This document shows positions 1,431 to 27,719 of a stretch of 39,174 nucleotides of DNA, piece after piece; the stretch's first letter is position 1; the number at the start of each line of letters is the position of its first letter. The stretch comes from Acidobacteriota bacterium (GTDB lineage Bacteria; Acidobacteriota; Terriglobia; Bryobacterales; JACQDG01): NCBI GenBank assembly GCA_016201185.1, contig JACQDG010000156.1, forward strand, positions 1 to 39,174, read 5' to 3'. The notes under the pieces are model-generated. The model saw nothing but the letters and a program-made list of their open reading frames with translations, was not told the origin of the DNA and searched no databases. The position numbers and the translations under genes were made by a program.

Positions 1431-1439
1431 GAGCGGCTT

Positions 1440-2165
1440 ATGGCAAGCGCAAAAAAGAGCAACGAACATCCCGATTCGAAGCGAACACTGGCAGTTGACA
1501 TAGGCGGCACAGGCATCAAGGTTATGGTTTTGGATGAAAACGGGAGACCGCTGACGGAGCGGTCCCGGGTGGGGACTCCCCAGCCGGCCACTCCGAGCGC
1601 GGTGCTCGGAGCTATCGTAGGCTTAGTCAAGAAGCAGGACGCCTTCAGCCGCGCCTCCGTCGGGTTTCCGGGCGTTGTCCGCAACGGCATCACGGAAACG
1701 GCGCCCAACCTGAATCCGGCGTGGAAGGGTTTTAATTTGGCTCAAACGCTCTCCAGGCGACTGGGCAAGCCGGTGAGAGTGGCCAATGACGCAGACGTGC
1801 AAGGGTTCGGAGCCATCACCGGGCGCGGCGTCGAACTGGTGGTTACCCTGGGAACCGGTCTCGGTTCGGCGCTTTTTGTCAATGGCCGGCTCGTACCCAA
1901 TTTGGAAGTAGCCCATCATGCCTTTCGAAAAGGCAAAACCTACGAGGAGAATCTGGGCAACGCCGCGTTGAAAAAGGCCGGGAAAAAGAAATGGAACAAG
2001 ACGCTGCGCCGGGCCATTTTAGAGCTCGAGCGCCTGTTTAACTACGACTTCCTGTTCATCGGCGGCGGCAATGCGAAGAAGATCGCTGGCGGGCTGCCGA
2101 CCAACGTCAAAGTTGTTTCGAACGTCGCCGGGCTGCTGGGCGGAATCGCTTTGTGGCGCGACTAG
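1440..2165 (+). CDS. ppgK: ROK-family glucokinase, polyphosphate-glucokinase-like
   Basis: [16 protein letters not shown] (ATPase phosphate-1 motif), [27 protein letters not shown] and FIGGGNAKK match the ROK/PPGK layout. It lacks the Zn-Cys motif of classic ROK repressors. It lies between gnd and zwf. Confidence 0.65.
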
Positions 2166-2221
2166 GCACCCGCCGGCCGCTGCAAAGGACAATCATTGGA
2201 AGGGAAGATACGCAAGGGGGA

Positions 2222-6870: not shown

Positions 6871-9800
6871 TTGAAAATGTTTGAACTCTTGAAGGGCTCT
6901 GGAACGGCGGCAGGCAGCCGCCATCGTCAACTGGTGCGGTTCGGTTCTCCGGGCCTGGCGGCCGGCCTGTGTCTGCTCTTGTGCCTATTCTTGACGCTTT
7001 CGCCTACTCCCGCCCAGGAAGAGCAGAGGTCGCGGCCATCCGCCGTTTCACGACTCGTCAACGAGACGCAGGCGGAAGCAGACCAAAAGAGCGCCGGTTG
7101 CATCACCTGTCACGTCAAGACGGATGCGCCCACCATGCATACGACTGGAACCGTGCGCCTCGGTTGCGCCGATTGCCATGGCGGGAATGTCGAAGCGCGA
7201 GTCCCGGCCGGAACGGCGCCGGGCTCTGCTGCCTACGAGGAGGCGAAGAAAAAAGCGCATCCGCAGCCCCGCATCCCGAGCCTCTGGAAAGGCTCGGCCA
7301 ATCCAGTGCGCCCCTATACTGGTTGGCTCCAAGAGAGCAAAGAATATATTCAGTTTGTCAATCCCGGTGATCTGCGCGTGGCTGAGCAGACCTGCGGGTC
7401 GGTGGGCTGTCACCCCCAAGAAGTGCGGGCGGTTCGGACCAGCATGATGACGCACGGCGCCATGTTGTGGCAGGCGGCGCTTTACAACAATGGCGGCTTC
7501 CCCTACAAGAATGCCCGGTTTGGCGAGAATTATTCTGCGGACGGTTTACCCCAGCGGATCAGCACCTGGCCGCCGCCGAGCCAGGAGCAAACCAAGAGCA
7601 AGGGCATCCTTCCCCACCTGGATCCGCTTCCTCGCTGGGAGGTTTCCGAGCCCGGCAACGTGCTGCGCGTTTTCGAGCGCGGCGGGGGGCCGCGCCCTGA
7701 GATTGGCAGCCCTAATCCGAAAGAGGATCCCGGCCGGCCCGACGAAAAGTTGAGCGACCGCGGTTTTGGCACGCTGCTGCGGACGGATCCGGTATTTCTC
7801 GGTCTGCAAAAAACACGACTGCTCGACCCGCTGCTTTCGCTTCCCGGCACCAACGACCACCCTGGCGATTATCGCAACAGCGGCTGTTCAGCCTGCCACG
7901 TGATTTACGCCAACGATCGCTCCTCCATCCACTCCGGGTCCTACGCCGTGTACGGCAACCAGGCCAGGAGCGCCGAGGCGGATCCCACTATTCCCCGGAA
8001 TGAATCCGGCCATCCCATCAAGCACGAATTCACTCGCGCCATCCCAACCAGTCAATGCATCGTTTGCCACATCCATCCCGGAACCAATATGGTAGCTACC
8101 TACCTGGGCTACACCTGGTGGGACAACGAGATGGACGGCGAGTTCATGTACCCGAAAAAACAACGTCACCCCACCGACGAAGACAGGTACCGGGCGTGGG
8201 TATCGAATCCGGAGGCAGCCTCGGTGAATGGGCTATGGTCCGACCCCGGCTTTCTGGAGAAAGTTGGCACCCCTGAATTCAACCGGCAGCTCCAGCACAC
8301 CCAGTTTGCCGATTTCCACGGCCACGGCTGGGTGTTCCGCGCCGTTTACAAGAGGGACCGTAAAGGCCGCTTGCTCGACGCCGAAGACCATATCGTCCCG
8401 TTCGGGGACAAGGACAAGTTCCAGAAGGCGGTTCAGCTCCGGGACATCCACCTCGAAAAGGGAATGCACTGCGAGGACTGCCATTTCGCTCAGGATAACC
8501 ACGGCAACGGTAACATTTACGGAGAGACGCGGAACGCTCTCGAAATTGATTGCGTCGATTGCCACGGGACCATCCAGCAGCAAGCTACTCTGCACACGTC
8601 CGGCCCCGCTGCGCCACCGGGCGGCACGGATCTGCAACTGTTGCGCACGCCGTGGGGGCAGCGGCGGTTCTACTGGCAGGACGGTAAGTTGTATCAGCGC
8701 TCCATGGTCGAGAAGGACCGCCTGCCGTGGGAAGTGGTGCAGGCGGTCGATACCATAACCCCCGGCAATCCGCATTACAGCGAAAAATCCCGCCTGGCGA
8801 AAACCATTCTCAAGGACGGCAAGAGCTGGGGAGGCGCGCCGCAGGATGAGTCACAGTTGGCTCACGCGAACAGCAAGATGACCTGCTACGCCTGCCACTC
8901 GTCGTGGACCACCAGTTGCTTCGGGTGCCATCTGCCCATGGCCGCCAACCGCAAGATGCCGATGCTCCACAATGAAGGGCTGACGGCGCGGAATTACACC
9001 ACCTACAACTTTGAGGTCTTGCGCGACGACATTTACATGCTGGGCATTGACGGCACCGTGACCAAGCACCGTATAGCGCCTACGCGCTCCACTTGCGCGG
9101 TGGTGGTGAGCTCCCAGAACGCGAACCGCGGCTGGCTGTACTACATGCAGCAGACGATTTCCGCCGAAGGGTTCAGCGGGTTCGGCTTTAGTCCCTATTA
9201 CCCCCACACCGTGCGCTCCAAAGAAACGAAGAACTGCACGGATTGCCACGTTTCGCAGGCGGGGGACAACAATGCCTGGATGGCGCAGATCCTGATGCAG
9301 GGAACGAATCTTGTGAATTTCATGGGGCGCTACGTTTATGTCGCGATAGGGAATAAGGGGTTTGAGGCGATTTCCGTCGCCGAGCACGATGATCCGCCCG
9401 CCGTGATCGGCAGCGATTTGCAGCGGATCGCCTACCCCGAGAGTTACGAGGAGCATCTCAAACGCCACCGCGAACTCCAGGAAAGCGACCATCATCCGGG
9501 AAACGTTCTGGACGTGCAGTTGCGCGGCGAGTATCTCTACGCCGCACTGGGGGAAGGCGGATTCCGCGTCTATGACGTTGCCAACGTCGACAATAAAGAC
9601 TTCTCGGAAAAGATGGTCACGGCGCCGGTATCTCCGCTGGGACAGCGTTTCTACGTCAAAACCAAGTATGCAGCGGCCATCGCCTCTCCTTCCACACTGG
9701 CCGTCGATCCCCTCCGCACCCGCATCCCGGAAAATGAGGAGCAGCCGATCGCCCTGCTATATGGTTTCCTTTATGTGGCGGACAAGTACGAGGGGCTGGT

Positions 9801-10740
9801 CGTCGTCGGAGATCCAAACCTGAAAAGCAAAAGTCCCGGCGTGCTGACTCTGCTCGACGGAAACCCCGCCAATAACTTTTTGAAGCGGGCCCTGGCGTTC
9901 AACCCCAGCGGAATCCTCAACGGCGCGCGCCGCATCACCATTGGGGGCAATTACGCTTACATTCTCTGCGACCGCGGCCTGGTGGTAGTGAGCCTGGAAA
10001 ATCCTCTGGCTCCCAAGGTCGTTGGCGCGGTGGGAGCGCCGGATCTGGTGGACCCACAGGGCCTGGCGATCCAGTTTCGTTATGCCTTTGTGGTCGACCG
10101 GCAAGGGCTCAAGGTGCTGGATGTAACTTCACTCGAACACCCCCGCGTGGCGCCCGGCGCCTTCGTTCCCTTGCCAGACGCCCGGAACCTCTACGTGGCG
10201 CGCACCTACGCCTACGTGGCCGGGGGCAAGCAAGGACTGGTGATCGTGGATGTCGAGCGTCCGGAGCACCCCTTCCTCGATCAGGCCTTTACGGCCGAGG
10301 GAGAAATCAACGATGCGCGCGATGTGAAAGCCGCCATGACCGCCTCCAGCGCATTTGCTTATGTAGCTGACGGGAAGAACGGCCTGCGTGTGGTTCAATT
10401 GTTTTCTCCCACCGACACCCCCGAATTCCTTGGCTTCAGTCCCCGGCCCAAGCCGAAGCTCATTGCCACGGCCCATACCCGCGGGCCCGCCCTGGCTATC
10501 TCCAAAGGCATCGATCGGGACCGGGCCGTCGATGAAAGTGGAAACCAGTTGACTGTGTTTAACCGGCGCGGGTCACGGCCCTTTAACCGGCAAGAGGGGG
10601 AGCGGCTATACCTGCGCAACGGTCAGCTTTACACGGTGACGAATGACCCGCCGGGGTCACCGGTCCAACTGACGAAGGGCGCGCCGGAAAAACCGATGAA
10701 AGAAGCCAGATCGGATGCGCCTGGTAGAGCCACACGGTAA
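6871..10740 (+). CDS. Multiheme cytochrome c (9 CXXCH plus 1 CX4CH) fused to a C-terminal LVIVD-repeat beta-propeller; secreted or membrane-anchored
   Basis: Hydrophobic N-terminal anchor [16 protein letters not shown]. Heme motifs: CITCH, CADCH, CGSVGCH, CSACH, CIVCH, CEDCH, CVDCH, CYACH, CFGCH and CTDCH (nt 7099..9249). C-terminal repeats: [45 protein letters not shown] and GLRVVQLFS (nt about 9526..10415). The track start is a TTG; an ATG lies two codons later at 6877. Confidence 0.8.
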
Positions 10741-13607: not shown

Positions 13608-15008
13608 TCAGGGTTGAATGGAGGCCCGCCCCGCAGCCGATCCTGGTGAAGGTGATCGCCCGGCCTTGCTCAGAAGTTGCGGGACCGTGAACTTGCCTTT
13701 GACCGGTTTTTCCTGGGTCCAATCGTGGTACAGGTGGCACTCGAAACAGCGGGCCTCGGCGGCTTCAGCCCTGCCAGAGCGATGACATTGCTGGCAAGTG
13801 GCGATCCCTGGCAGCAGCACCTCAGAGGTTTTCTCGCTGGTGGCGGTCTGGACGTGACAGGCCGTGCAAGCCAGCATTTGATGGGCTTGGTGATCAAAGA
13901 TCGCATGGGGAAGCCAGCGCACCGTAATGGCGGACTTGGCTACATCGGGCAGCGACGCGCCGGCCGCAAAGCTGAGCGTGTGGCATTCTTTGCAGGTCTT
14001 CTCCCACAGGAGCAGTTCCGCGTCCTCCACGCGTTGCTCCACCCACTCGGCTGCATTCCGCGGCGCCGGTCGAGGGGGCCGGCCCGGTATCCTCGCTTCG
14101 GCCAAGCTCGGTTTGCGCAACTCTTCGGGATGGGCGGCGATGTACTCGGTAAACTTCTTGACCACGAAGTTGTAAACCACCTTCGGCTCTTTATGGGGTA
14201 CCGGCTCCCGAAATCGCTCGTCGAAATAAAGAGGATGGCAGGCGGAACAACTCTCGCTGTAATGGATGGTCGCCATATAGGCCCTCGCCGATACGCGGGC
14301 CGGTAAGGGCTGGGGCGGCGGCTCGGAAAGAGCCACTGTGGAAAGCTCCGCCTGGCCGAAGGGCCACGGCTCTTTCCCTCCCGGCGGCCGGTGGCAGTCG
14401 GCGCACTGCAACTGCACGGGTCCATGAGGGCCGCGCAGATCTGCTTTGAGGTGTATCTTGTGGTTCAACTTGATCGCGCCCGGGTCGCTGCGGCCGGGGC
14501 GCACCGAAGCGAACTCCGGATGCCCGCCGTTGAATTCCGTGATGTTGGCCGCGAAGCTCGGATGCCCGTCTTTGGTCTGCAAGCTGGCATGGCACCGGGT
14601 ACAAGCCCGGTCACTCGTTTGTGCCAATCGGACGGCGCCCACGTGTTCGACGTGACAGGACCCGCAAGAGGGGGTAAAGACCTGCTTTGCCTGATGGACG
14701 GGGCCGTCGTGGCAGGAGAGGCACGCTTGATCCGTCGCCTTCTTAAGGAAGATGTGGCTGACGTGACAAGCCGCGCAGTTGAGACCAAAGACAGCGTGCG
14801 AATGCGCCACGGGGCCGCCGGTGTAAACGTGCTGGTTGCCGGCGAGCCCCTCCCAACCCAGCCAAACGAGACCCAGGGCGACCAAACCTATGGAGAGAAT
14901 GCGGCGCCAGCGGGGCAGGGGATACAGGCGCTTGAAGTAATCCAGCTGGATGCGCTGTGCAAGTTTCTTTGTAGTCCGCGTTCTTCCCGGCACAGCGCTT
15001 CTCCTCAC
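13608..15008 (-). CDS. Membrane-anchored periplasmic decaheme cytochrome c with c3/c7-like modules
   Basis: N-terminal TM anchor ILSIGLVALGLVWLGW. Ten CXXCH motifs: CAACH, CLSCH, CGSCH, CTRCH, CADCH, CSACH, CKECH, CTACH, CQQCH and CFECH. FDHQAHQMLACTACH resembles the c7/c3 F.H..H....C..CH pattern. The GTG start directly abuts the upstream stop (TGAGTG). Confidence 0.85.
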   Translation of the reverse strand: MRRSAVPGRTRTTKKLAQRIQLDYFKRLYPLPRWRRILSIGLVALGLVWLGWEGLAGNQHVYTGGPVAHSHAVFGLNCAACHVSHIFLKKATDQACLSCHDGPVHQAKQVFTPSCGSCHVEHVGAVRLAQTSDRACTRCHASLQTKDGHPSFAANITEFNGGHPEFASVRPGRSDPGAIKLNHKIHLKADLRGPHGPVQLQCADCHRPPGGKEPWPFGQAELSTVALSEPPPQPLPARVSARAYMATIHYSESCSACHPLYFDERFREPVPHKEPKVVYNFVVKKFTEYIAAHPEELRKPSLAEARIPGRPPRPAPRNAAEWVEQRVEDAELLLWEKTCKECHTLSFAAGASLPDVAKSAITVRWLPHAIFDHQAHQMLACTACHVQTATSEKTSEVLLPGIATCQQCHRSGRAEAAEARCFECHLYHDWTQEKPVKGKFTVPQLLSKAGRSPSPGSAAGRASIQP

Positions 15009-15917
15009 TCAGTACCGCAGCGCGATCACTGCGTGAACTGACGCCAAGACCAAGAGGGCTATCGACAATGGGACATGGACCAGCAGCCACCCGTGCAGCC
15101 AATGGTAGAGACGAATCTGGCGGCTCAACTGGCGCTCTTCCTCCCAGATGTTTCCCAGGTTGTCCACCAGAGGGTGCAGTGGGACGGGCAGGAGCACCCG
15201 CAGCGACTGGAAAACTTCCTCGGCCCGTTGAGGAATGGCAAGCTCGGCGCCCGGCGCGCCCGGGTTCTCCAGGAACGGTCGCATCTTTTGGAGGTAGATT
15301 TCGCGAAAACGCTCCCTGGCTTCCTCCTCCACTTCGACCAGCGTGGCTACCGCCGCAGCCCCCTGCGCCGTGATTCGGTCCGAAACGGCTTGAGTTTGGC
15401 CCGCGCTGATCCCTAAAGGCCCGCAAACGGCGGCTGCCAGTTCGTCGGCTTCCCCTAGCAGTTGTTCGCGTACGTGCGGTATCTCTTCATAGATCGTTTC
15501 CATCGGCGCCTGCACAGTCATCATTTGAGGCAGATAATGCTGGAGCGCGGCGCCCAGCACCCCGCTGGCGATCACAATAAAGAACAGCACCATCAAGACG
15601 GTTGTCAAAGGTCCCCGAAAAGCGAAGCCGCTGTGGAACAGGATCAGAGGCAGGCTGACCAGTCCCAGCCAGAGATGACCCCTCATCCAGGTCTGGGCCC
15701 GGCCAATGCGCCAGACCGGTACTTTCTTGCGCGCTCCTAGCAAGCCGGCATACAACATCAATCCGTAGCCGATAATGCCGTAAGTGATCCCCAGCGTGCT
15801 GCCGCCGCTCGGTCCGCTCGGCGATCGCAGGACGTACGGTATGTAAATAGTGACGCCGGCGACCAGCAGGACCAGGGAGGCAATCATCCAGGGCCGGTGG
15901 GCTCCATCGATTCGCAT
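15009..15917 (-). CDS. Integral membrane protein (about 5 TM) with two H-x13-H pairs; putative di-heme b-type transmembrane electron carrier of unknown family
   Basis: Predicted TM helices at about aa 10-30, 42-62, 80-100, 104-127 and 273-300. H81-x13-H95 (HLWLGLVSLPLILFH) and H281-x13-H295 (HVPLSIALLVLASVH). A soluble helical insert of about 140 aa lies between TM4 and TM5. A GAGG RBS precedes the ATG, 9 nt after the upstream stop. Confidence 0.55.
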   Translation of the reverse strand: MRIDGAHRPWMIASLVLLVAGVTIYIPYVLRSPSGPSGGSTLGITYGIIGYGLMLYAGLLGARKKVPVWRIGRAQTWMRGHLWLGLVSLPLILFHSGFAFRGPLTTVLMVLFFIVIASGVLGAALQHYLPQMMTVQAPMETIYEEIPHVREQLLGEADELAAAVCGPLGISAGQTQAVSDRITAQGAAAVATLVEVEEEARERFREIYLQKMRPFLENPGAPGAELAIPQRAEEVFQSLRVLLPVPLHPLVDNLGNIWEEERQLSRQIRLYHWLHGWLLVHVPLSIALLVLASVHAVIALRY

Positions 15918-15926
15918 CGTACCTCG

Positions 15927-18089
15927 CTAGCGATCGGCAGACCTCCCCTGCGGCGCCCCCACAAGCCCGCTGAAGAACGTGTTGGGGTCCACCCGGTGAG
16001 CGGCATCGTGCGGGCAAGCGTACACGCAACTGGGTTCTACATGTTCCGTGCAAAGATCGCAGGAAGTAGCTTTTTGCTTGACAACAGCGACCTCTCGCTC
16101 CGGGGCAGCCGGATCCTTCGCATATACGGTGAAGGGGTGCATGTTGATGTTGCCGTACGGACAATTTTTGGCGCACAGGCCGCAGCCGATGCACCAGTCT
16201 TCGATAATTACCTCCAGAGAATTACGACGCCGGATAGAGCCCACCGGACAGCCCACCATACACAGAGGATCGCGACACTGCCGGCAGGAGGTGGCCACCA
16301 GATACTTGTCGAAGCGCACTCCTTCACGGATTAAGCGGGTTACGCCGTCGTGGGCGTCGGCGCAGGCGCGCACGCAGTTGTCACAGCGCGTGCACCGCTC
16401 CAGGTCGAGCACCAGCAAGCTTTGGGCCTCCATCAGGCCCTGGGCCAGAAACCGTTCGAGAGGGACGCTGGACGCGGCCGCGAGACGTTGTCGGTTTTGT
16501 TCCTCGCGCTCTTGGGCCACGGCTTCCAGACTACGCCGGACTTCGGGGAAGGCTAGCGTCATGCGGTGGAAATCTTCGCCATGGATACGGACCACCTCCA
16601 CGTGATCCAGCGCCGTGCAAGTGGCAGTGCGCCGACCCTCGCCTAGCAAACCCATCTCGCCGAAGTAGCCGCCGCGGCCCAGATAGGCCAGCACAAGCTC
16701 CCCTCCGGGGTGTATTTCGGAGACCTTTACAAAGCCGATGCGAACGAGATAGAAGCTGTCGGCTATGTCGCCCTGGCGGCAGATGACATCACCCTTGGAA
16801 TAACGCACCAGCTCCACCCTATCGCGCAGCGAATCGATGAAATCCTGGGTGAGCGTGGCGAATACAGGAACGCTGCGCAAATGGTCGTCGAGAGCGCGCC
16901 GCCGGTAGTTTTCCTCGATCTGCGCTTTGAGCGTCTTGTTCCTTTGCATGATGTCGAGGACGTTGCGCAGCATTTCTAGCATGGTGCAGTCGGTAGCAGC
17001 GCGAACGGTGGCGGAGCGCGGATACAGGCTCATGCAGGTCATTTCGCCGAACAGGTCGCCCGGACCAAGCTCGGCGACGGGATTTTCATAGGGCAGATCC
17101 ACCGGCGCATCAATCGGGATCATGCGGCGGTCCGCTTCTTCCGCGCGGCGATTCTCCCGCCGCCCGGCGAGACGGCTGGTGAGCTTGCTCAAGAAGCCCG
17201 TAGCGCCGCCCTCCGTCTTGACGTGGGCCAGGGGAGCGGAAAGGAACACCTGGGCCTTCCCCTGGAGGATATAGAATGCCGTGGAGCCGTACTCTCCTTC
17301 CCGGCAGACAATGTCTCCTTTCCGGAAGCGGCGAAGGACAATAGCGTTCTTATTCAGATCCAGGAAGGTCCCCGATACCTTCTGGAAGTAAGGCAATTGC
17401 AGCAACTCCTCCACGTTCACCGGCTCGCCTTGGGGCAAGACCGTCTTCACGACACTTTTGTTTGTCAGGGCGCCGGTGGGGCAGGAGACCATGCATTCCC
17501 CGCACGAAACGCAGGAAGAATAGCCCATGGGCTGGTTGTGATCGAAAGCGATGCCGGTCTGGTAACCTTTTCCCCTGCGGCCGAGCACGTCGTTGTGGCG
17601 GATTTCATCGCACCCGCGAATGCAACGATCGCAGAGGATGCAGGCCTCGTGGTCCACGGAGATCACAAAGGAGGTGTCATCCTGCCCGCGGGGCGAGAGG
17701 CGGCGGGCAAACCGCGGCTGGGTGACACCCTCCGTCCTGGCCAACATCTCGAGCTCGCAGTCGCCCGACTGTCGCTGGCGGGCGCAGGGGCTGGGATGGT
17801 CCGTCATCAGCAATTCGACCAGGGTACGGCGCACGTTTCTTACCTTTTCCGAGGTGGTGGAAATCACCATGCCGTTCTCCGCCAGTCGAATGCAAGAGGC
17901 GGCCAAAACACGGCCGCCTACATCCACCGCGCAAACGCGACAGACGCCCACCGGCGCTTCGTTCTGCTGGTGGCAAAGGGTGGGGATGGAGATGCCGTGG
18001 ATGCGGGCCGCATCGAAGATGGTAGTATCGGAAGGGACCGAAATCGGCCGGCCGTCGATGGTCAGTTGAACCTGGCTGTCCGAGCTCAT
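15927..18089 (-). CDS. Multidomain Fe-S protein: HoxU/NuoG-N-terminal-like [2Fe-2S] plus [4Fe-4S] module, two cyclic-nucleotide-binding domains, and a DmsB/HybA-like four-cluster ferredoxin
   Basis: N-terminus: LTIDGRPI...TLCH..(x)..CRVC..(x)..C ([2Fe-2S]), HPSPC...C, CILCDRCIRGC and CVSCGECMVSCP. cNMP domains: FRKGDIVCREGEYGSTAFYILQG...GPGDLFGEM...RSATVRA and YSKGDVICRQGDIADSFYLVRIG...GRGGYFGEMGLL...RTATCTA. C-terminus: CTRCDNCVRAC, CRQCRDPLCMVGCP, CIGCGLCAKNCP and CDLCTEHVEPSCVYACP. I chose the start at MSSDSQVQ, whose ATG overlaps the upstream TGA (ATGA at 18086..18089). No signal or Tat motif is present. Confidence 0.8.
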   Translation of the reverse strand: MSSDSQVQLTIDGRPISVPSDTTIFDAARIHGISIPTLCHQQNEAPVGVCRVCAVDVGGRVLAASCIRLAENGMVISTTSEKVRNVRRTLVELLMTDHPSPCARQRQSGDCELEMLARTEGVTQPRFARRLSPRGQDDTSFVISVDHEACILCDRCIRGCDEIRHNDVLGRRGKGYQTGIAFDHNQPMGYSSCVSCGECMVSCPTGALTNKSVVKTVLPQGEPVNVEELLQLPYFQKVSGTFLDLNKNAIVLRRFRKGDIVCREGEYGSTAFYILQGKAQVFLSAPLAHVKTEGGATGFLSKLTSRLAGRRENRRAEEADRRMIPIDAPVDLPYENPVAELGPGDLFGEMTCMSLYPRSATVRAATDCTMLEMLRNVLDIMQRNKTLKAQIEENYRRRALDDHLRSVPVFATLTQDFIDSLRDRVELVRYSKGDVICRQGDIADSFYLVRIGFVKVSEIHPGGELVLAYLGRGGYFGEMGLLGEGRRTATCTALDHVEVVRIHGEDFHRMTLAFPEVRRSLEAVAQEREEQNRQRLAAASSVPLERFLAQGLMEAQSLLVLDLERCTRCDNCVRACADAHDGVTRLIREGVRFDKYLVATSCRQCRDPLCMVGCPVGSIRRRNSLEVIIEDWCIGCGLCAKNCPYGNINMHPFTVYAKDPAAPEREVAVVKQKATSCDLCTEHVEPSCVYACPHDAAHRVDPNTFFSGLVGAPQGRSADR
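16557..17399 (-). other. Domain region: tandem cyclic-nucleotide-binding (CAP-effector-like) domains embedded between the Fe-S modules
   Basis: Two copies of the beta-roll signature (G.LFGEM / GYFGEMGLL followed by R[ST]ATV/C.A). The first copy carries an insertion of about 50 aa (FLSAPLAHVKTEGG...DLPYENP). Confidence 0.7.
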
Positions 18090-19765
18090 ACCAGCCTCTC
18101 TTCGCGCATGGGGCAGACCCTTTCGGGGCATTCCCGGCGGAGGATATGGGCCTCGACTTCTTTCCGGAAATGCTGCAGCACGGAAGTTATCGGTGCATGG
18201 GCGAATTGCCCCAGACCGCAAATGGAGGTCAGGCGCAGGGCGTCAGAGAGTTCATCCACCAACTGCAGATCAGCCGGTGAGCCTTTGCCTTGCGTCCAGC
18301 CGGTGAGGATGTCCACCAGTTTCTGGGAACCCATGCGGCAAGGTACGCACTTGCCGCAAGACTCGTTGCGGAAGAACTTCACTGCGTTCAAAGCCATGTC
18401 GAGCATACACCTGCCTTCGGCACAGACCACGATGGCACCCGAACCCAGCATGGAGCCGGCCGCGGCCATCGACTTGAAGTCGAGATGGACATCCACCAGG
18501 GAGGCCGGAAGATAGCCTGAAGACGGACCGGAAGGGGCAAAAGCCTTGAGTTGCTTGCCGTCGGGGGGACCGCCGGCGAGATTAAGAATCACCTCCGAGG
18601 CCGGCGTACCCATAGGGATTTCGAATACCCCCGGTTTACGCACATCGCCGCTGACGCCCACCATCTTCAAGCCGGCAGCTCCACCCTGTCCCTGGGTCTT
18701 ATACCATTCCACGCCGTTGGTCAGAATCTGAGGCACGTGGGCGAAGGTCTCGACGTTGTTGAGCACGGTCGGTTTGTTCCAGAGCCCATGGGTGACAGGG
18801 AAGGGCGGTTTGTTGCGGGGTTCGGCGCGCTTGCCTTCGATAGCTTCTAGCAAAGCGCTCTCCTCGCCGCAGATATAACCGCCCGGGCTGACGAAGATTT
18901 CCAGCTCGAAGGGGAGGTCAGACCCGAGCACCTGCAGCCCCAGGATGCCGTCTTGCTTGCATTTGTGAATCTCTTCGTCCAGGATCCTTTCCTGAACGCC
19001 GTACTCATGGCGAATGTAAAGGACACCCTTACGCGCCCCGGCCACCAACCCGGCGATGATCATCCCCTCGATGACGAGGTGGGGCAGGTGGTGCATGATG
19101 AAGCGGTCTTTGATGGTACCGGGCTCGCTCTCGTCAGCGTTGCACACGACGTACTTCTCCGTGCCCGGAGCTTTGCGAACGGCCTCCCACTTGACCCCCG
19201 TGGGAAAGCCAGCGCCTCCCATGCCGCTCAGTCCGCTGGCCTTTAAGGTCGCAATGACGCCGTCCCAGTCCCGGGTCTGGACCAGGCGCCGAAGTGCGCC
19301 GTAACGCGTGGCGCCCTTATAAGGGTCGGAAGCGAGATCCGTCCGCCTGTTTTCCACGGGCTGCTCCGGCAACTCACTGCCTCCCAGGGCGGCGAAGACC
19401 AGAGCCTCGGCCTGGGCCCCGGTGACCCCGCGGTAAATGTGGTCATTGACGGAAATAGCGGGGGCCCCGTCACATTGCCCCAAACAGGAGGTCTCGCGAA
19501 CAGAAACCTCGCTCTCGCCCAACGGCAGGAACCGCTGCTTGAGCTCGGCGCGCAACGGCTCGGCCCCTCTCAGGTGGCAAGACATGTCAGAGCAAACCCG
19601 CAGATTCACCTTGGCCGCAGGCGTCAGATAGAAATGAGGATAAAAGCTTGCCACGCCATGCAGGCGATAGAGGGGGATCTTGGTCTTCTTGGACAGCGCC
19701 TCCAAATGCTCGGCTGGCAGATAACCGTATTGACGCTGAATGGCCCTGAGTTCTTCGAAGATCAC
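18086..19765 (-). CDS. NuoE-NuoF fusion: NAD(P)H-binding FMN/Fe-S diaphorase subunit (HoxEF / NADH dehydrogenase 24-kDa plus 51-kDa type)
   Basis: NuoE-like N-terminus (GVASFYPHF...RVCSDMSCHLRG...CLGQCDGAPA). NuoF motifs GLSGMGGAGFPTGVKW, YVVCNADESEPGT.KDR, ICGEESALLEAIEGKR.EPR.KPPFP and the N3 cluster ESCGKCVPCRMG...CGLG. GTG start, with a possible TTG one codon upstream, after an AGGAG. Confidence 0.85.
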   Translation of the reverse strand: MIFEELRAIQRQYGYLPAEHLEALSKKTKIPLYRLHGVASFYPHFYLTPAAKVNLRVCSDMSCHLRGAEPLRAELKQRFLPLGESEVSVRETSCLGQCDGAPAISVNDHIYRGVTGAQAEALVFAALGGSELPEQPVENRRTDLASDPYKGATRYGALRRLVQTRDWDGVIATLKASGLSGMGGAGFPTGVKWEAVRKAPGTEKYVVCNADESEPGTIKDRFIMHHLPHLVIEGMIIAGLVAGARKGVLYIRHEYGVQERILDEEIHKCKQDGILGLQVLGSDLPFELEIFVSPGGYICGEESALLEAIEGKRAEPRNKPPFPVTHGLWNKPTVLNNVETFAHVPQILTNGVEWYKTQGQGGAAGLKMVGVSGDVRKPGVFEIPMGTPASEVILNLAGGPPDGKQLKAFAPSGPSSGYLPASLVDVHLDFKSMAAAGSMLGSGAIVVCAEGRCMLDMALNAVKFFRNESCGKCVPCRMGSQKLVDILTGWTQGKGSPADLQLVDELSDALRLTSICGLGQFAHAPITSVLQHFRKEVEAHILRRECPERVCPMREERLV

Positions 19766-20007: not shown

Positions 20008-21369
20008 ATGAGCCTGGTTCGCACCAGCTACATTTCACTTCTGGCGGTGTGGGCGGAAAGCGCCGTGGCTTGCCTGCTGATGGGGGGCGGGACTCTGCTT
20101 GCCGCTGAGGCCCCCCAAAGCAGCGCCTTGACATCGGAGGCCTCCAAGTTTACCGGGCCGGGTTCGTGCAGCTCCACCAGTTGCCATGGTGGCGTGCAGC
20201 CCCGGGCGGAAACCTCCGTTCGGCAAAATGAGTACAGCCTCTGGGTAGTGCGGGACAAACATGCCCACGCCTTTGCTGTGCTCTCGAATCCGGTTGGGAC
20301 ACGGATGGCTCGTATTCTGGGGCTGCCTCGGGCAGACACTGCTGAGAAGTGCCTGGCCTGTCACGCCCTGAATCCTCCTCCGGACCAGCGCGCCAAGACC
20401 TTCTCCGACCTCACCGACGGGGTAAGCTGTGAAGCCTGTCATGGGCCGGCGTCCAACTGGCTGGGCCCGCATACCACCCGCGGCTGGGCTTACGAGAAGT
20501 CGCTCCAAGCAGGCATGTACAATACCCGCGACCTGATCAAACGGAGCGAGAAGTGTCTCTCCTGCCATTTGGGCAATGAGGAAAAGTTTGTCGATCACGA
20601 GATGATTGCGGCCGGCCACCCCGACCTGTATTTCGAACTGGACTCCTTTTCGGCGGCGATGCCCCGGCATTGGAAAGAGCCGCTGGACAAGGATCCCTGG
20701 CTGGGGGTGCGAACGTTGGGCACGGGGCAGGCGGTGCAATTGCGGGAGCATCTGAGGCGCGTAGCCCGGCGGGCTCAGGGAAGCATCTGGCCGGAATTCT
20801 CCGAACTGCAATGCTTCGCCTGTCATCATGATTTGACGGCCGCGAAAGACAGTTGGAGGCAGGAACGTGGCTATCCGGGGCGGCGTCCGGGCGACCCGCC
20901 GTTCAATATGTCCCGCTATTCTATTTTCCGTCAGGTGGTTTACGAAGTGGACCGGCAGGAGGGCGGCCAGCTCGATTCCCAGCTCAACAAGCTGTTTGGC
21001 CTGATGAGTGAGCTCTCGGCCGACCGCAAGCAGGTCGTGGCTGCGGCCGAGAGTTCAGCCGAACTGGCTGACCGGCTGGCTCGCCGGATCGCCTCACTGC
21101 AATTCGACCAGGGGATGACCATGCGTTTGCTCAAAAGCATTTCCGGCGACGCTGACTACATCGCAGGGCAAGGTGAGCGGTCGGCCGAGCAGGCAGCCAT
21201 GGCGCTGGATTCTCTTTTCATCGCTTACATCCAGAGCGCGAAAATGGGAAACGAGCAGCAAGTCCGAGCGGCCATTAACTCCCTTTTCCAGGAACTGTCG
21301 AATCCTTCCGCCTATAATGCTTACACTTTCGCCCGTGAGGTGCATAAGTTGAATGCTTTGCTGCCGTAG
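20008..21369 (+). CDS. Secreted multiheme cytochrome c (cytochrome c554-family-like; 4 CXXCH plus 1 CX4CH) with a helical C-terminal domain of unknown function
   Basis: Signal peptide (LLAVWAESAVACLLMGGGTLLAAEA). Heme motifs CSSTSCH, CLACH, CEACH, CLSCH and CFACH. W..RDKHAHAF after the first motif resembles the c554-family layout. The last roughly 170 aa contain no Cys or heme motifs. Confidence 0.7.
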   Translation: MSLVRTSYISLLAVWAESAVACLLMGGGTLLAAEAPQSSALTSEASKFTGPGSCSSTSCHGGVQPRAETSVRQNEYSLWVVRDKHAHAFAVLSNPVGTRMARILGLPRADTAEKCLACHALNPPPDQRAKTFSDLTDGVSCEACHGPASNWLGPHTTRGWAYEKSLQAGMYNTRDLIKRSEKCLSCHLGNEEKFVDHEMIAAGHPDLYFELDSFSAAMPRHWKEPLDKDPWLGVRTLGTGQAVQLREHLRRVARRAQGSIWPEFSELQCFACHHDLTAAKDSWRQERGYPGRRPGDPPFNMSRYSIFRQVVYEVDRQEGGQLDSQLNKLFGLMSELSADRKQVVAAAESSAELADRLARRIASLQFDQGMTMRLLKSISGDADYIAGQGERSAEQAAMALDSLFIAYIQSAKMGNEQQVRAAINSLFQELSNPSAYNAYTFAREVHKLNALLP

Positions 21370-21386: not shown

Positions 21387-23009
21387 ATGCCCAGGGACCA
21401 TAACAAGTCGCGTTCCCGGAGGGCCATCCTGGCGATCCGTAACCTTATCATGCTGGTCTTGGTGGCGGCTGCCTCGCTAATCTGGGGGAACGGCCGCGGG
21501 GCCGACTCCGATCGCGCCATCCCGACCGTGCGCTTCCCACGCGTTCACCACGTCCCGCGAGCCCCCCACTTCAACAATTTCGACCCTCGCCCGATCCTGA
21601 CTGCCGGCGACGTGCAATCCGTTGTTCAACGCGCGGCCGAATCGCTGGATTCCACCGCCATGGTCATCGCCGTGACGGATCGCCAGGGCGACGTCCTGGC
21701 GCTATATCGGAAGCCTGGCGCCCCCCCAACGGCCGTGGGCAACTTCAGCATGATGGTTGACACCAACGAGCTGGCCGTTGCTTTAGCCCGTACGGCGTCG
21801 TTTTTCAGCAACAACCAGGCGCCCCTTTCCACGCGCACGGTTCGTTTCATCAGCGGCATTCATTTCCCTCCCGGGATTCCTTTCACCCCAAACGCGGCCC
21901 TCTACGGTATTGAGAATACCAACCGGGGCTGTCCGGTGAATGCCGATTTCATCCCGGGCCAGGAGGTTCCTCCCGCCCGTACCATCGACAGGACGCGGCC
22001 GGGGCTGGGAATCATTACCGGCAAAGCAGACCTGAACGACAGCGACAGCAACGCGGTGAATCCCGGAGGGGTCCCGCTGTTCAAGCAAGGGCAGTTGGTA
22101 GGCGGGGTCGGGGTTGCCGGCGTCTCTCCTAACCTGGTTGAATATGCCGCGTTTTCCGGCGCGGCCCGTGCGGGATTCGAGCCTTCGCCGGCGCCGCCCG
22201 AAGTGGTGATTATCGACGGTCTCGCCTTGCCTTTCGTCGATCAGAAAGCACAGCCTGCGGGAACAGGACCGGGGGCATTCGATGCCGCAAACTTCCTGAT
22301 CCCCCCGCGCGGCAGTCCCAAGCCGGCTCCGGAGGGCGACCTGGTAGCGCCCAAAGCCGGCCCCTTGGGTGGCCTGACGGCAGAAGAGGTCCGCCACATT
22401 ATTGATGCGGCAGTGGCAACAGCCGATCAGACACGGGGCGTGATCCGGCTGCCGCTGGGCTCGCGCGCTCGGATGGCGATAGCGGTCGCGGATCTGGACG
22501 GTACGATCCTGGCGTTGCACCGGATGCCGGATGCAACCATTTTCAGTATTGATGTGGCGGTGGCCAAGTCACGCAACGTGATTTACTTCAGCAGCGCGCA
22601 GCGCAGGCCGGAGGACCTCCCGGGCGTCCCCATGGGCACGGCGGTCAACAACAGGACCATCAGTTTCGGGGCGCAACCTCTCTTTCCGCCGGGCATTAAC
22701 TTCAGCCAGCCGGGGCCATTTTTTGATCTCTACAAATGGGATACGGCCAATCCTTGTACGCAAGGCTTTCAGGCTCCCAATTCCAACCAAAGCGGAATCG
22801 TATTTTTCCCGGGCAGTCTTCCGCTTTACAGGAATGCGGTGCTGGTGGGCGGGCTGGGCGTCAGCGGCGATGGAGTGGAACAGGACGACTTTGTCACCGC
22901 CGGCGCGGCGCAAGGCCTGGACGCTCCCGAGTCGATCCGGGCGGACCAGATCATAATCCGGGGAGTGCGACTCCCCTACCTGAAATTCCCTCGCAATCCG
23001 ACCCAATGA
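21387..23009 (+). CDS. Membrane-anchored or secreted protein with two tandem GlcG/HbpS-like (DUF336, heme-binding/degrading-like) domains
   Basis: N-terminal anchor AIRNLIMLVLVAAASLIW. Module 1: LTAGDVQSVVQRAAE...MVIAVTDRQGDVLALYR...GGVPLFKQGQLVGGVGVAGV. Module 2: LTAEEVRHIIDAAVA...IAVADLDGTILALHR...IDVAVAKSRN...GSLPLYRNAVLVGGLGVSGDGVEQDD. It starts 18 nt after the cytochrome stop. Confidence 0.6.
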   Translation: MPRDHNKSRSRRAILAIRNLIMLVLVAAASLIWGNGRGADSDRAIPTVRFPRVHHVPRAPHFNNFDPRPILTAGDVQSVVQRAAESLDSTAMVIAVTDRQGDVLALYRKPGAPPTAVGNFSMMVDTNELAVALARTASFFSNNQAPLSTRTVRFISGIHFPPGIPFTPNAALYGIENTNRGCPVNADFIPGQEVPPARTIDRTRPGLGIITGKADLNDSDSNAVNPGGVPLFKQGQLVGGVGVAGVSPNLVEYAAFSGAARAGFEPSPAPPEVVIIDGLALPFVDQKAQPAGTGPGAFDAANFLIPPRGSPKPAPEGDLVAPKAGPLGGLTAEEVRHIIDAAVATADQTRGVIRLPLGSRARMAIAVADLDGTILALHRMPDATIFSIDVAVAKSRNVIYFSSAQRRPEDLPGVPMGTAVNNRTISFGAQPLFPPGINFSQPGPFFDLYKWDTANPCTQGFQAPNSNQSGIVFFPGSLPLYRNAVLVGGLGVSGDGVEQDDFVTAGAAQGLDAPESIRADQIIIRGVRLPYLKFPRNPTQ

Positions 23010-23977: not shown

Positions 23978-26900
23978 CTATCGTACGGCGATGGTAACCG
24001 GGGCGCTGAGCTGCCCGGCGACGCTAAGCTGGACCTCGACCGCATCCCCAGGCGTCACGCCGGCGGGCACAAAGACGTTGACCTGGTATAAGCCGGCGAA
24101 GCTTGGCGTCAGCCCGGCAAAGAGGAGTTGCGCGGGAACCTTTCCGATGGTCACCGCAACCGGATTCACAGCCGTTGAGAGCGGCGATAGGCGCGCCGCC
24201 GCGCCGGCCGCGACCGGCGGATCCACCGCACCCAGTCCCGTACAGTAAATCACGATGGCGTCCCCAGACTTGGCGGGATTACCGGGCTCCACGAGGCGAT
24301 TTTGGAGATCCACGATCACACCCTGCCCCGTCCCCATCTGGTTCTTGGCGAAAATGCCTGGCGAAGCCGGCGCTATCGTCAGCGAGAGCGGCGTTGTGGC
24401 CGCGGTTCCCATTTGGACAAACATCGACAGCCGCGTATTCACCGGAATGTCATAGGGAATCTGCGCATTGATCTGTCCGGCCAGGGTGACCAGCAGCGGC
24501 AATGGCTCGCCCCGAATCACCGCTAGACTGCCGGCAAGTTGCGTCGGTAGAGGCAGAGAGGGAGCGTACGCCGTGTTACTGGCAAGACTGGCGCCAAACA
24601 GCGAGATCAGGCTGCCAGGCGCCAGCGGCGCCTGCGGCGCGAAACTGGCTGCGTTCACCACTCCCCCGAGCAGCGGAGGTTCCGGGTTCGGTTGCACCCC
24701 GCCGACCGCCTGAACCGTCGCGATGATGGCTGGCGGCACGCTGGCCGTCACCGTAATGGTGACCGCGGAGGACACCGACTGCGCCGGCCACGTGGCGCCC
24801 CAGCGACCGTCCCCCAGAGACGTCAGGTTCAGCGGGGGATCACCGTTCGAGAATGTCGCCACCACCGAGCCAGTGGTAATCAGATTGGCGCAGTCGTCCA
24901 CCACTTTCACTTCGATCGGGGTCGGCCATTTGGCCGGCACGTTGAAGTTAGACCCGTTGTAATTCGTCCCCAGTTGCGTGAATAAGGGAACCAGTTTTGT
25001 GGGCGTGCAGGCGGCCGCCTCAACGATGGGCAAAGCTTTTGCCGCCGGCGCAGCGGCGCCAGGCGCCACCACCAGCAACAACAAGTTGACCGTTTGGGCC
25101 GTGCCGTCTGAAAACAACAGCAGCAACGCTCCCTGGCGGACGTCCGGGCCCAAACCTGTGATATCGGGTTGCACCACGACTTGCGCGGGCGGGCCCTCCA
25201 TCACCGTGACGGTGGCGGTAGCATCGCCCAAAATGGCCTGCGCCGCAGTGACGCTCAACGTGCTCGTCAGGTTGTTGACCTGTACGCTCTGTGCGCTAGG
25301 CGAGGCCCCGCCGGCCACTGCCGTAAATAGCAGTCCGGTCGGCTGCAAATCGACAGCAAGCTGGCTCCCGGCGGCCAATACCTTTAAGACCACCGTCACG
25401 AACTGTGGTGAATTCTGGGAATCCGGCGCCGAGATCTGAATTGAGCCATAGTAAACACCATCGTCCAAACCAGCGGGAAGAATGCTGACCTCGACCGGCG
25501 GAACAGGCGAAGAGGGATCGGTCGAGCCGCTCGACGGCGACACCGAAAGCCAATCGCCTCCCGAAGATGTAGAAGCTTGCGCCGTCCACGGGAGCACACT
25601 ATGGCCCGTGGTGGCCACACCAAAACTCTGCGTCCCGCCGGCCGTCCCGCCCTCCACCGCCGTAAAGGTCAGCCCCGTTTCTGTCAGCGCGAGTTGAGGC
25701 TGCTGGCCGAGGATCAGCACGACCACCCTTACCTTCGTGCCGTTGATTGTGACCGAGCCCGAATAGACGCCGGAGCTCAGGCCGGTTGGATCTACCAGGA
25801 CCGATAACGTTGTGGCAGCTAGCGGGTTGACCACGCCCTGAGTAGGCGAACCGCTCAGCCAGTTGCCGCCATCCTCAGTGGCCGCAACGGCGGTGAAGGC
25901 GACAGAGCCGCCGGAGGCAGTAAGCACGAGCGGCTGGCCGGCGGGACTGGCGCCTGGCAAGAAGCTGAAGTTGAGCACTGGCGGCTGCACGTTCAAAGTG
26001 GGCTGTGATGGGGCGGGGCTGACCGTAAAGATCACCACGACCGTTTGCGTGGGGGGAGTGGTTCCTCGCCCCGTGATGGTGATGGTCCCCTGGTGCGTCC
26101 CCGCGGCCAGGGAGCCAGGGTTTGCCGTGATGAGGATCAGCGCCGGCGTGATGGCGTTGCTCTCGGTGGCGCTAAGCCATGTTCCTCCCGTGGTGGTGCT
26201 GATCGAGATTGTCACGGGGACGCCAGCGAACGAACTAACGATGCTGATGTTCTGCCCAGACGGCGCGGCGCCGCTGCTCTGACCGGCGAAAGAAAGCTGC
26301 AACGGCGAGACGGCCAGCTTGGCGGCTTCGACCACCTGCGCCAATGCTTCCGAAGTCACCCCCTGGAAGCTCGCGTCGCCGCTGTATATGGCGGTAATAG
26401 AGTGCGTACCCGGATCCAGTTGCACGGTCGTCAGCGTGGCCACCCCCGCCGGGCTCAAATCGGCCGGTGGGCCAAGTGCAACGCTACCATCCTTAAAGGT
26501 CACCGTACCGGTCGGCGTGCCGGAGCCACTTACCGTGCCGGTAAAGGTCACCGATTGGGCAAAAACTGACGGGTTCTGCGAAGAGGTCAAAGTGATCGCC
26601 GCGCGCGACTTGTCACCAGTCTCAACACGGCTAATGGTCAGGGATCCGCTGCCATTAATGCTAACTTGCAGTTGTATGCTCTGGATGGCTGTGAAATCTG
26701 CCCCTTTGCCGGATGTAATCACGAAACTCGAAAACGGGAAAACAAGATCGCTAGAAAAAGGCGTAGGCATTCGGGAAATAGATGAAGATCCCGCGGCGCT
26801 ACTCACCGTGATCATTAGAGTGGACTGAACAGTCGACGAAACTCCACTTGCAACAAAAGTCTTCTGGCCGCTGAGGTCTAGCGCGAGTTGGCCGGCCGTC

Positions 26901-27247: not shown

Positions 27248-27719
27248 TTCAATCGTCTTCTTATAAACCGAGAGGAGGCGGGATAACCGGCGTTCGGATC
27301 GGGCGAAAAGCCATAAGGGGAGATGGCGCAAATGCCATAGACCGCTATGCTGCAAGCTCTCATCCACCCCCTGCGCGGTATGAACCTTAGGCCATTGCTG
27401 GATCCCAGACCAGTCACTCTACCATAAGCCCAGGGTGCGAGAATGATACAGAATTTCCTTCGTCGGCCTAACGACCAGATCGTCGGAAAAGGCGCACGCT
27501 GCTCTCCGGACGCGTGATGAGGGCAGAAAACCTGGCTTAGATCTTCACAGACCATTGCAATTTTACGTGCCTTTGCCTGCCCAGTCAAGGCCCATTCTTC
27601 CTATTCTTCCAGGAGCTTCCAGATGCAAAGAAACAGAGAAGTGCCGGTCTGTTTTGCCCATAGCAATGCCGGGAAGCGGGCGGCCGCGCTGAAGGAGCGA
27701 TGCCAAAGCCACCGGATCG

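Follow-up and report, generated by a model that had tools for sequence, protein, structure and literature searches.

In bacteria, the known effectors of cyclic nucleotides are transcription factors, channels, an acetyltransferase, and a small number of enzymes. Cyclic nucleotide-binding (CNB) domains fused to an output other than DNA binding are found in mycobacterial Pat, the family 2B encapsulin shell, the SthK and MloK1 channels, and the EAL phosphodiesterase Bd1971. We know of no electron-transfer chain under posttranslational control by a built-in sensor for a cyclic nucleoside monophosphate (cNMP). Here, we analyze a gene at positions 15927 to 18089 (minus strand) of a 39,174-nucleotide stretch of DNA from an Acidobacteriota bacterium (GenBank assembly GCA_016201185.1, contig JACQDG010000156.1, positions 1 to 39,174; the window). 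Its product is a protein of 720 amino acids (aa), in which two consecutive CNB domains stand between a HoxU-like iron-sulfur (Fe-S) module and a ferredoxin module with four clusters (C4). Like the proteins named above, it has CNB domains fused to a non-DNA-binding partner, but here they would act on a chain of Fe-S clusters for electron transfer, and we found no described precedent for such an output.

We propose a four-gene conduit, probably independent of quinone, that takes electrons from NADH in the cytoplasm to multihaem cytochromes in the periplasm, with this protein as its Fe-S wire and regulatory subunit, and we give this proposal an even chance of being right. Sequence and comparative evidence establish the components of the conduit. 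Its path, its regulation, and its haem binding are suggested by sequence and synteny.

One polypeptide carries two Fe-S modules and a tandem CNB sensor

An earlier annotation of this DNA, made from its letters without database searches (the sequence-only reading), had placed an Fe-S N-terminal module, two cNMP-binding folds, and a ferredoxin tail in one polypeptide at 15927 to 18089. The open reading frame (ORF) and its Pfam and NCBIfam matches bear this out. Translation is taken to start at an ATG at position 18089, trimmed from a TTG-initiated ORF of 764 aa. This ATG overlaps the stop codon of a gene for a NuoE-NuoF fusion as ATGA (4 nt), and such start/stop overlaps are the usual mark of translational coupling. 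The gene and its parts are as follows.

15927..18089, minus strand: whole gene, HoxU-like module, tandem CNB domains, and four-cluster ferredoxin module (ORF, Pfam, NCBIfam)
17850..18077, minus strand: [2Fe-2S] domain, aa 5-80, ligands C39, C50, C53, and C66 (Fer2_4, E = 1.8e-16)
17712..17831, minus strand: degenerate His-ligated [4Fe-4S] site, aa 87-126, with H98, C102, Q105, and C111 (PF10588, alignment to 7q4v_A)
17460..17666, minus strand: pair of [4Fe-4S] sites in a ferredoxin-like domain, aa 142-210 (CxxCxxCxxxC motifs, Pfam Fer4 dicluster)
16896..17417, minus strand: CNB-A, about aa 225-398 (cNMP_binding, PKG and PKA-R alignments, beta-barrel and helices in the model)
17082..17237, minus strand: insert of ~50 aa within the CNB-A beta-barrel, variable among relatives, ~aa 285-336 (breaks in the Pfam and PDB alignments, low model confidence)
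16998..17051, minus strand: phosphate-binding cassette A, aa 347-364, FGEMTCMSLYPRSATVRA (Gly-Glu...Arg-[Ser/Thr]-Ala conserved)
16476..16895, minus strand: CNB-B, ending in a long helix, ~aa 399-538 (best Pfam stretch aa 428-510, model helix aa 504-538)
16611..16664, minus strand: phosphate-binding cassette B, aa 476-493, FGEMGLLGEGRRTATCTA (Gly-Glu...Arg-[Ser/Thr]-Ala conserved)
15975..16427, minus strand: C4 module, about aa 555-705, four [4Fe-4S] sites with 16 Cys from C566 to C692 (motifs, NCBIfam matches)

An identical protein (P0001) from a metagenome-assembled genome of an acidobacterium is in the NCBI database, where it is named only "cyclic nucleotide-binding domain-containing protein." All NCBIfam matches were far below the whole-protein cutoffs. 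HoxU scored 167 against 333 and NuoG scored 121 against 470, and the profiles matching at the C terminus scored 52.5 against 260 (HydN), 42 against 214 (DmsB), and 32 against 200 (DsrO). Therefore, no curated family covers this protein. AlphaFold2 modeled it with a predicted local distance difference test (pLDDT) score of 81.6 and a predicted template modeling (pTM) score of 0.66. A PDB fold search matched the individual modules alone and found no structural analogue of the whole protein. Pfam detected no helix-turn-helix, kinase, channel, or esterase domain, and inspection of the sequence found no signal peptide or twin-arginine translocation (TAT) peptide. Without a DNA-binding, kinase, or channel domain to act on, the sensor has just the Fe-S modules as a candidate output.

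Both phosphate-binding cassettes are intact and conserved

Pfam detected cNMP_binding (PF00027) with an E value of 2.1e-39 (133.8 bits against a threshold of 27.5), in three stretches that make up two domains. The best PDB sequence match of this region was yeast Bcy1 (3of1; E = 1.4e-22), in one continuous alignment from phosphate-binding cassette A through CNB-B, and Plasmodium PKG (5dyk) was a further match. Fold matches of the modeled region were 4z07, 3shr, 3of1, and 1rgs, and a nucleoside-bound trypanosome PKA-R was also among them. The CRP and YeiL profiles matched the CNB part only (profile positions ~12-160), and the NCBIfam profiles of Pat and encapsulin 2B also matched there. Pfam found no dimerization/docking domain, inhibitor sequence, or kinase domain in the protein. 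In the AlphaFold2 model, a long helix (aa 504-538) joins CNB-B to C4. This C-terminal position is where CRP, PKG, and related sensors drive their outputs.

The sequence-only reading had described two CAP-effector-type folds with FGEM...R[ST]A-type signatures, the first with an insertion of about 50 aa. Pfam and the cassette alignment agree with it on the folds. They also agree on the insertion, where the Pfam match is split, the PKG alignments leap from aa 284 to aa 337, and pLDDT drops below 50 at aa 288-314. The length of this insert is highly variable among relatives. The extent of the sensor had been put at about 280 aa, but it is about 310 aa when the insert and the C-terminal helix are included.

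We then counted the cassette residues in the family. In CNB-A, G348 is kept in 377, E349 in 373, R358 in 371, and A360 in 363 of 381 proteins. In CNB-B, the counts among 382 proteins are 376 for G477, 358 for E478, 338 for R487, and 311 for Thr or Ser at position 488. Nucleotide-contact residues are retained in ~97 to 99% of ~380 relatives for CNB-A and in ~88 to 98% for CNB-B. The same conservation was seen in a 38-sequence alignment of diverged relatives and in variants that lack the HoxU-like module (see below). Degenerate cassettes, which the earlier annotation had named as a sign that the domains are structural only, were not found; the Glu and Arg that contact cyclic AMP (cAMP) or cyclic GMP (cGMP) are kept in both domains throughout the family. 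With these residues and the flanking Gly and Ala intact and conserved, ligand sensing is plausible. We propose that the tandem CNB domains bind cAMP or cGMP. The RSA motif of CNB-A and the RTA motif of CNB-B do not, by sequence alone, discriminate between the two.

Three Cys residues of the sensor are also conserved: C352 inside cassette A (359 of 381), C491 just after or near cassette B (314 of 382), and C262 in beta-2 of CNB-A (27 of 39). Redox modulation of ligand binding is one possibility.

The sensor is joined to a four-cluster module

Fer4 domains were detected in C4 at about aa 596-700 (Pfam), and HydN, DmsB, DsrO, and PadI profiles matched over aa 554-704 (NCBIfam). For analysis of conservation, we used 39 full-length diverged relatives with 38 to 60% identity to the protein. 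Fifteen of the 16 Cys are invariant in this set, and C680 is Cys in 33 of the 39. Sixteen Cys in four groups would suffice to bind four [4Fe-4S] clusters, arranged as in the beta subunits of complex iron-sulfur molybdoenzymes (CISM) and in HydN. This upholds the four-cluster ferredoxin tail of the sequence-only reading.

To find architectural variants, we searched 1.84 billion representative proteins and used the top 150 clusters (E ≤ 4e-88), all of which have CNB and/or C4 segments. The 1,506 clusters at E ≤ 1e-30 over-count the family, because homologues of the N-terminal module alone (HydA, NuoG) reach that score. Besides HoxU-CNB-CNB-C4, as in our protein, the top 150 clusters included CNB-CNB-C4 alone (~500 to 550 aa), FHA(-FHA)-CNB-CNB-C4, FHA-HoxU-CNB-CNB-C4, and CNB-CNB-C4 behind an N terminus of ~200 to 400 aa of no known type. 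One metagenomic gene call (P0179; 1,483 aa) reads NuoE-NuoF-HoxU-CNB-CNB-C4, but it could be a frameshift artifact and is therefore supportive only. The core-only proteins P0282 and P0287 are encoded by complete genes with intact upstream intergenic regions. P0274, which has an N terminus of no known type, is 79% identical over the shared core to the HoxU-type protein P0272.

These core-only proteins, and the swapped N termini on near-identical cores, indicate that the CNB pair belongs to C4 and that the HoxU-like module is an exchangeable N-terminal add-on. It is therefore misleading to describe the CNB domains as inserted in the middle of one Fe-S subunit, as the earlier annotation did. Gating between two chains within one polypeptide is excluded as a general mechanism of the family, since CNB-CNB-C4 exists without an N-terminal Fe-S module, and the case for an evolutionary origin of the CNB domains as spacers between two cluster chains is undercut. 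However, the swaps are still compatible with CNB domains that may control the hand-over of electrons from whichever donor is present. A further family member of 1,058 aa (L091:6001-9177, plus strand) has a weak NUDIX match inside the polypeptide, possibly a further nucleotide-related insertion.

The HoxU-like module: one [2Fe-2S] site and two complete [4Fe-4S] sites

The HoxU profile matched aa 7-213 with an E value of 4e-49, and the top partial NCBIfam matches over aa 7-218 were FeFe-hydrogenase A6 and HoxU. The module also matched the sequence of HydA1 (7q4v; 7e-42), and it superposed on the N terminus of HydABCSL subunit A (7t30_A) with a root mean square deviation of 1.9 Å over 210 columns. 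The four Cys ligands of the [2Fe-2S] site are invariant in 39 of 39 diverged relatives. So are the two complete [4Fe-4S] sites in this set, C150/153/156/160 and C193/196/199/203.

The remaining site is degenerate. NADH-G_4Fe-4S_3 (PF10588) matched aa 87-126 below threshold (25.1 bits against 27). Its expected pattern is H-x3-C-x2-C-x5-C, and residue-level alignment to Acetobacterium woodii HydA1 (7q4v_A) puts Q105 in the position of the second Cys. Cys is absent from the residue counts listed for position 105 in relatives. C102 and C111 are mostly lost in diverged representatives, and 40 representatives have Asn at position 111. One [2Fe-2S] and about three [4Fe-4S] clusters had been assigned to this module from the sequence alone. 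The [2Fe-2S] site stands, but only two of the [4Fe-4S] sites are complete, and the His-ligated one lacks its second Cys and decays across the family. Structures of HydA and of HoxU-type modules show the His-ligated cluster on a side branch. By analogy, its loss need not break the chain from the [2Fe-2S] cluster to the two [4Fe-4S] clusters.

The gene is part of a conserved operon

Neighboring genes that might take part in electron transfer are as follows.

18086..19765, minus strand: NuoE-NuoF fusion, 559 aa, NADH/FMN (flavin mononucleotide) input flavoprotein (2Fe-2S_thioredx, Complex1_51K, NADH_4Fe-4S; nuoF_fam, 1.2e-136)
15009..15917, minus strand: 302-aa membrane protein with five predicted transmembrane (TM) helices, putative di-haem b carrier (TM prediction, invariant His)
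13608..15008, minus strand: decahaem cytochrome c, 466 aa, with an N-terminal membrane anchor (10 CxxCH; cytochrome c7, c3, and paired CXXCH matches)
20008..21369, plus strand (divergent): c554-like multihaem cytochrome, 453 aa, with 4 CxxCH and 1 CxxxxCH (Pfam Cytochrome_C554)
6871..10740, plus strand: LVIVD-repeat protein, 1289 aa, loosely associated (LVIVD, 1e-23; weak cytochrome matches)

The NuoE-NuoF fusion has the FMN motif GMGGAGF and the sequence GGYICGEE, together with cluster Cys at 58/63/94/98 (NuoE [2Fe-2S]) and 470/473/476/516 (N3-type). Pfam and motif inspection found no extra ferredoxin or Fer4 domain on it, which makes it a simple, nonbifurcating type.

The gene for the 302-aa membrane protein begins nine bases downstream of the CNB gene. 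Between TM4 and TM5, its product has a soluble region of ~150 aa, placed in the cytoplasm by positive-inside charges. H81 and H95 in TM3 and H281 and H295 in TM5 are invariant, distant orthologues included, with a spacing of 14 residues in each pair. Such a spacing within each of two His pairs, carried by two helices, is the classic pattern of a pair of stacked b haems, known from cytochrome b, NarI, and NOX-type domains. Therefore, the 302-aa protein is a putative di-haem b transmembrane electron carrier. Its family has 4,254 homologues, every one of them labeled "hypothetical protein."

The start of the decahaem cytochrome gene abuts the stop of the membrane-protein gene, and its product weakly matches the NrfH and DmsE families (NCBIfam). 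The LVIVD protein has a short region like a c-type cytochrome at about aa 517-575. LVIVD proteins recur beside the system in three related loci (L083, L085, and L092), and the 1289-aa protein may act downstream, as a partner in the periplasm or at the surface. A CRP/FNR-type operator was not found in the divergent promoter region of 240 bp, just weak short palindromes.

When genomes were scanned with one representative for each species, at least 420 relatives of the CNB protein came to light, and we examined synteny in the best 80 of these at least 420. Nearly all of the 80 are from Acidobacteriota (Bryobacterales, Acidoferrales/Acidiferrales, Terriglobales, and Vicinamibacterales). Two are labeled Bordetella and Chthoniobacterales, which probably reflects binning. 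Wherever the contig permits, the order NuoE-NuoF (NuoEF), CNB protein, membrane protein, and decahaem cytochrome is kept in 80 of 80 loci. NuoEF adjoins the CNB gene, and the membrane-protein gene is directly downstream of it, in all 80; the decahaem cytochrome gene is in nearly all. A divergent c554-like gene is in most of the 80 and in both core-only loci.

Variants without the HoxU-like module, including the core-only ones, have no NuoEF gene, and homologues of the membrane protein (42 to 43% identity) and of the cytochrome still follow. The sensor and C4, as one unit, are thereby linked to the membrane pair. NuoEF adjoins every HoxU-bearing variant examined and is fused to it in the P0179 gene call. 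Two associations emerge: the HoxU-like module goes with NuoEF, and CNB2-C4 goes with the membrane protein and a multihaem cytochrome.

Other genes in the related loci encode signaling proteins. Beside the c554 gene of one core-only locus is a gene for a type II NADH dehydrogenase (Pyr_redox_2 and NDH2_C; NDH-2) with a C-terminal cNMP_binding domain (L081:3755-5374, minus strand), a second respiratory enzyme with a cyclic nucleotide sensor. Giant Ser/Thr kinases are encoded beside an FHA-bearing variant (L085:1-3951, minus strand) and a HoxU-type variant (L090:8590-13131, minus strand). A class III nucleotide cyclase is encoded ~5 kb downstream of that HoxU-type variant (L090:13591-14478, plus strand). 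The FHA domains, Ser/Thr kinases, class III cyclase, and NDH-2-cNMP fusion point to heavy signaling input.

Elsewhere in the window, a gene directly after the c554-like gene (21387-23009, plus strand) encodes a 540-aa protein with repeated HbpS-like (haem-degrading/sensor) domains, which is present in about one-quarter of the 80 loci. A pentose-phosphate/glucose-entry cluster at 447-3718 (plus strand) encodes a 6-phosphogluconate-dehydrogenase-like protein, a ROK glucokinase, and glucose-6-phosphate dehydrogenase. This is ordinary metabolism, yet it supplies reduced nicotinamide cofactors. The window also has a 1,129-aa surface-type protein with Big_3_5/BACON domains (23978-27367, minus strand) and an 857-aa ORF with no Pfam match (36516-39089, minus strand).

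A proposed path for NADH electrons and its control

If these proteins form a conduit, electrons from NADH would pass through FMN to the [4Fe-4S] cluster of NuoF, to the clusters of the HoxU-like module, and then to the four clusters of C4. From C4, they would cross the membrane through two b haems to the decahaem cytochrome. That cytochrome could pass them to the c554-like protein and the LVIVD/cytochrome partners in the periplasm or at the surface. Bioenergetics argues for an outward direction, because NADH is a strong reductant and the membrane potential favors the outward movement of electrons. The reverse would be doubly uphill, and there are no coupling subunits. Unchecked export of NADH electrons would drain reductant and membrane potential, which might explain a need for tight allosteric control.

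For this control, the obvious candidate is the conserved pair of CNB domains. Binding of cAMP or cGMP would reorient the helix at aa 504-538 and the two CNB lobes, as it does in PKA-R, PKG, and CRP. C4 would then change its contact with its donor (the fused HoxU-like module), with the membrane cytochrome, or with both, turning electron flow on or off. The controlled step might be transfer from the donor to C4, transfer from C4 to the membrane haem, or oligomerization. In its fullest form, the proposal is that cAMP or cGMP directly gates respiration in Acidobacteriota, through a PKA-R-like sensor in the Fe-S wire of an undescribed quinone-independent conduit that switches the export of NADH electrons. 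We consider this full form possible but doubtful.

Several observations weigh against the conduit and its gating by cyclic nucleotides. Ligand binding is read from cassette motifs, and haem binding by the 302-aa protein is read from its His pattern. That protein had no match in Pfam, NCBIfam, or a PDB profile search; its model is weak (pLDDT 68), and a fold search with it returned generic helical bundles (E ≥ 0.15). Confidence in the model of the CNB protein is low at the linkers, at ~aa 211-220 and ~aa 540-550. A quinone might be an intermediate for the membrane protein or the cytochrome. No cyclase gene is within the window. In planctomycete-type loci, an assignment that rests on one source name (P0170) and on neighboring Pfam families (P0179), NuoEF and the CNB protein have no adjoining membrane protein or cytochrome, so the conduit context is not universal. 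The few organism names among the clusters of distant relatives are Planctomycetales and Candidatus Angelobacter. Finally, CNB folds can take other ligands, as in the nucleoside-binding PKA-R of trypanosomes (PMC6440977).

Four other explanations have to be weighed against the proposed conduit. The sequence-only reading had the CNB pair physically separate the HoxU chain and the C4 chain and gate electron transfer between them; in specific terms, nucleotide binding would open or close a gap of more than 14 Å. The pair does sit between the two Fe-S modules in the sequence, its cassettes are intact, and PKA-R-type tandems, to which the fold matches belong, rearrange their lobes strongly. However, sequence order does not imply spatial separation, and the absence of an N-terminal Fe-S module from some variants and its replacement on near-identical cores in others mean that separating two chains cannot be the conserved function of the family. 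We therefore consider a gated gap improbable. The CNB domains might instead be structural or dimerization scaffolds, or might bind a ligand other than a cyclic nucleotide, with constitutive electron transfer. Some CNB folds bind nucleosides or haem, the trypanosome PKA-R is among our fold matches, and a large variable insert in CNB-A and the unexplained conservation of C352 and C491 in or near the cassettes could be accommodated in this way. However, a cyclic-phosphate clamp (Gly-Glu and Arg-[Ser/Thr]-Ala) retained at the levels given above is unexpected for a purely structural role. Lineages in which the ligand changed (trypanosome PKA-R, CooA, and FNR) lost the clamp residues. A scaffold or a changed ligand is, in our judgment, quite unlikely.

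The FHA variants, the giant Ser/Thr kinases alongside, and the planctomycete-type loci without adjoining membrane partners would suit a protein that works mainly in redox and second-messenger signaling, in which C4 senses redox state and the output is a protein-protein interaction. Against this are 16 essentially invariant Cys in the CISM-beta/HydN arrangement of a typical four-cluster wire, the tight and translationally coupled synteny with the His-pair membrane protein and the decahaem cytochrome, and the presence of a complete NADH/FMN input module. We think such a signaling role very unlikely. The last alternative keeps the components but changes their working. NuoEF, the CNB protein, and the membrane protein could be a nonpumping NADH:quinone oxidoreductase, with the decahaem cytochrome as a separate quinol dehydrogenase, or periplasmic donors could reduce NAD+. 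In the oxidoreductase, the four-cluster subunit would dock on the di-haem b anchor as NarH docks on NarI; there, too, a subunit with four clusters on the cytoplasmic side is paired with an anchor of five TM helices and two b haems. The membrane-anchored multihaem protein has its weak NrfH and DmsE matches. However, no quinone-site motif or NarI/FdnI homology was detectable in the 302-aa protein by Pfam, NCBIfam, PDB, or fold searches, and NuoF has none of the additional clusters seen in bifurcating enzymes. Electron flow to NAD+ would be uphill in both redox potential and membrane potential, with no coupling subunits. On this evidence, a quinone-linked or reverse mode appears unlikely.

Significance and relation to known systems

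Each module is of a known kind, and the family is already in public databases under a generic name. What appears from sequence to be new is their combination, a modular NADH-dehydrogenase, four-cluster, and haem conduit with a built-in second-messenger sensor. In the full-text literature that we searched, in which coverage of journals is partial, there was no description of a CNB-bearing Fe-S electron-transfer subunit, this operon, or this membrane-protein family, and nothing relevant on LVIVD proteins with multihaem cytochromes. The family is abundant in soil Acidobacteriota, with at least 420 matches in species-representative genomes. The operon seems to provide a new way for electrons of NADH to cross the inner membrane and reach multihaem cytochromes, which bears on reductant disposal or metal respiration in soil bacteria that are globally abundant and hard to culture. 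The family of the 302-aa protein is a candidate new family of transmembrane haem carriers or cytochromes. If the proposal is true, a second messenger would switch the delivery of NADH electrons to acceptors in the periplasm or outside the cell, and the exchangeable N termini (HoxU, FHA, or none) would define a family of electron conduits gated by signals. The system lends itself to experiment, with soluble domains, obvious ligand candidates, and spectroscopic assays.

Compared with known systems, the N-terminal part is like HoxU and the N termini of HydA and NuoG, which occur with a HoxF/NuoEF diaphorase in NAD-linked hydrogenases, formate dehydrogenases, and the N module of complex I. It resembles them in its [2Fe-2S] site, its two ferredoxin-type [4Fe-4S] sites, and its adjoining NuoE-NuoF flavoprotein. 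However, it is not followed by a catalytic module of a hydrogenase or formate dehydrogenase, or by a quinone module. Its His site is degenerate (Q105), it is joined to sensor domains and a four-cluster module, and its score is under the HoxU equivalog cutoff. The NuoE-NuoF protein differs from Bfu-type NuoF and HydB of bifurcating enzymes, which have extra Fe-S domains on the flavoprotein. C4 resembles CISM and HydN subunits (DmsB, NarH, FdnH, HybA, NrfC, DsrO, and HydN) in its 16 Cys in four CxxCxxCxxxC-type groups, in its profile matches to HydN, DmsB, DsrO, and PadI, and in the membrane-protein gene directly downstream. It differs from them in being cytoplasmic without a TAT signal, in having CNB sensors ahead of it, in missing every curated cutoff, and in having an unrelated, unannotated family as its membrane partner.

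As in NarI, FdnI, cytochrome b561, and the NOX/ferric reductase domain, two TM helices of a small helical bundle in the 302-aa protein carry a pair of His residues each, at a spacing of 14, and its donor domain is on the cytoplasmic side. Unlike them, it has no detectable sequence or fold homology to these proteins, and its haem binding is putative. The logic of its system would be that of NOX, with a cytoplasmic nicotinamide donor, two stacked haems, and an outside acceptor. The sensor differs from CRP and FNR in lacking a C-terminal helix-turn-helix DNA-binding domain. It is closest to PKA-R and PKG, with which it shares two consecutive CNB domains and canonical cassettes (best matches Bcy1, 3of1; PKG I-beta, 4z07; RI-alpha, 1rgs). 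However, it lacks a dimerization/docking domain, an inhibitor site, and a kinase partner, and it has an insert of ~50 aa in CNB-A and Fe-S modules on its flanks. Judged by its sequence, the protein would work like a tandem CNB sensor, but it is neither a PKA-R nor a PKG.

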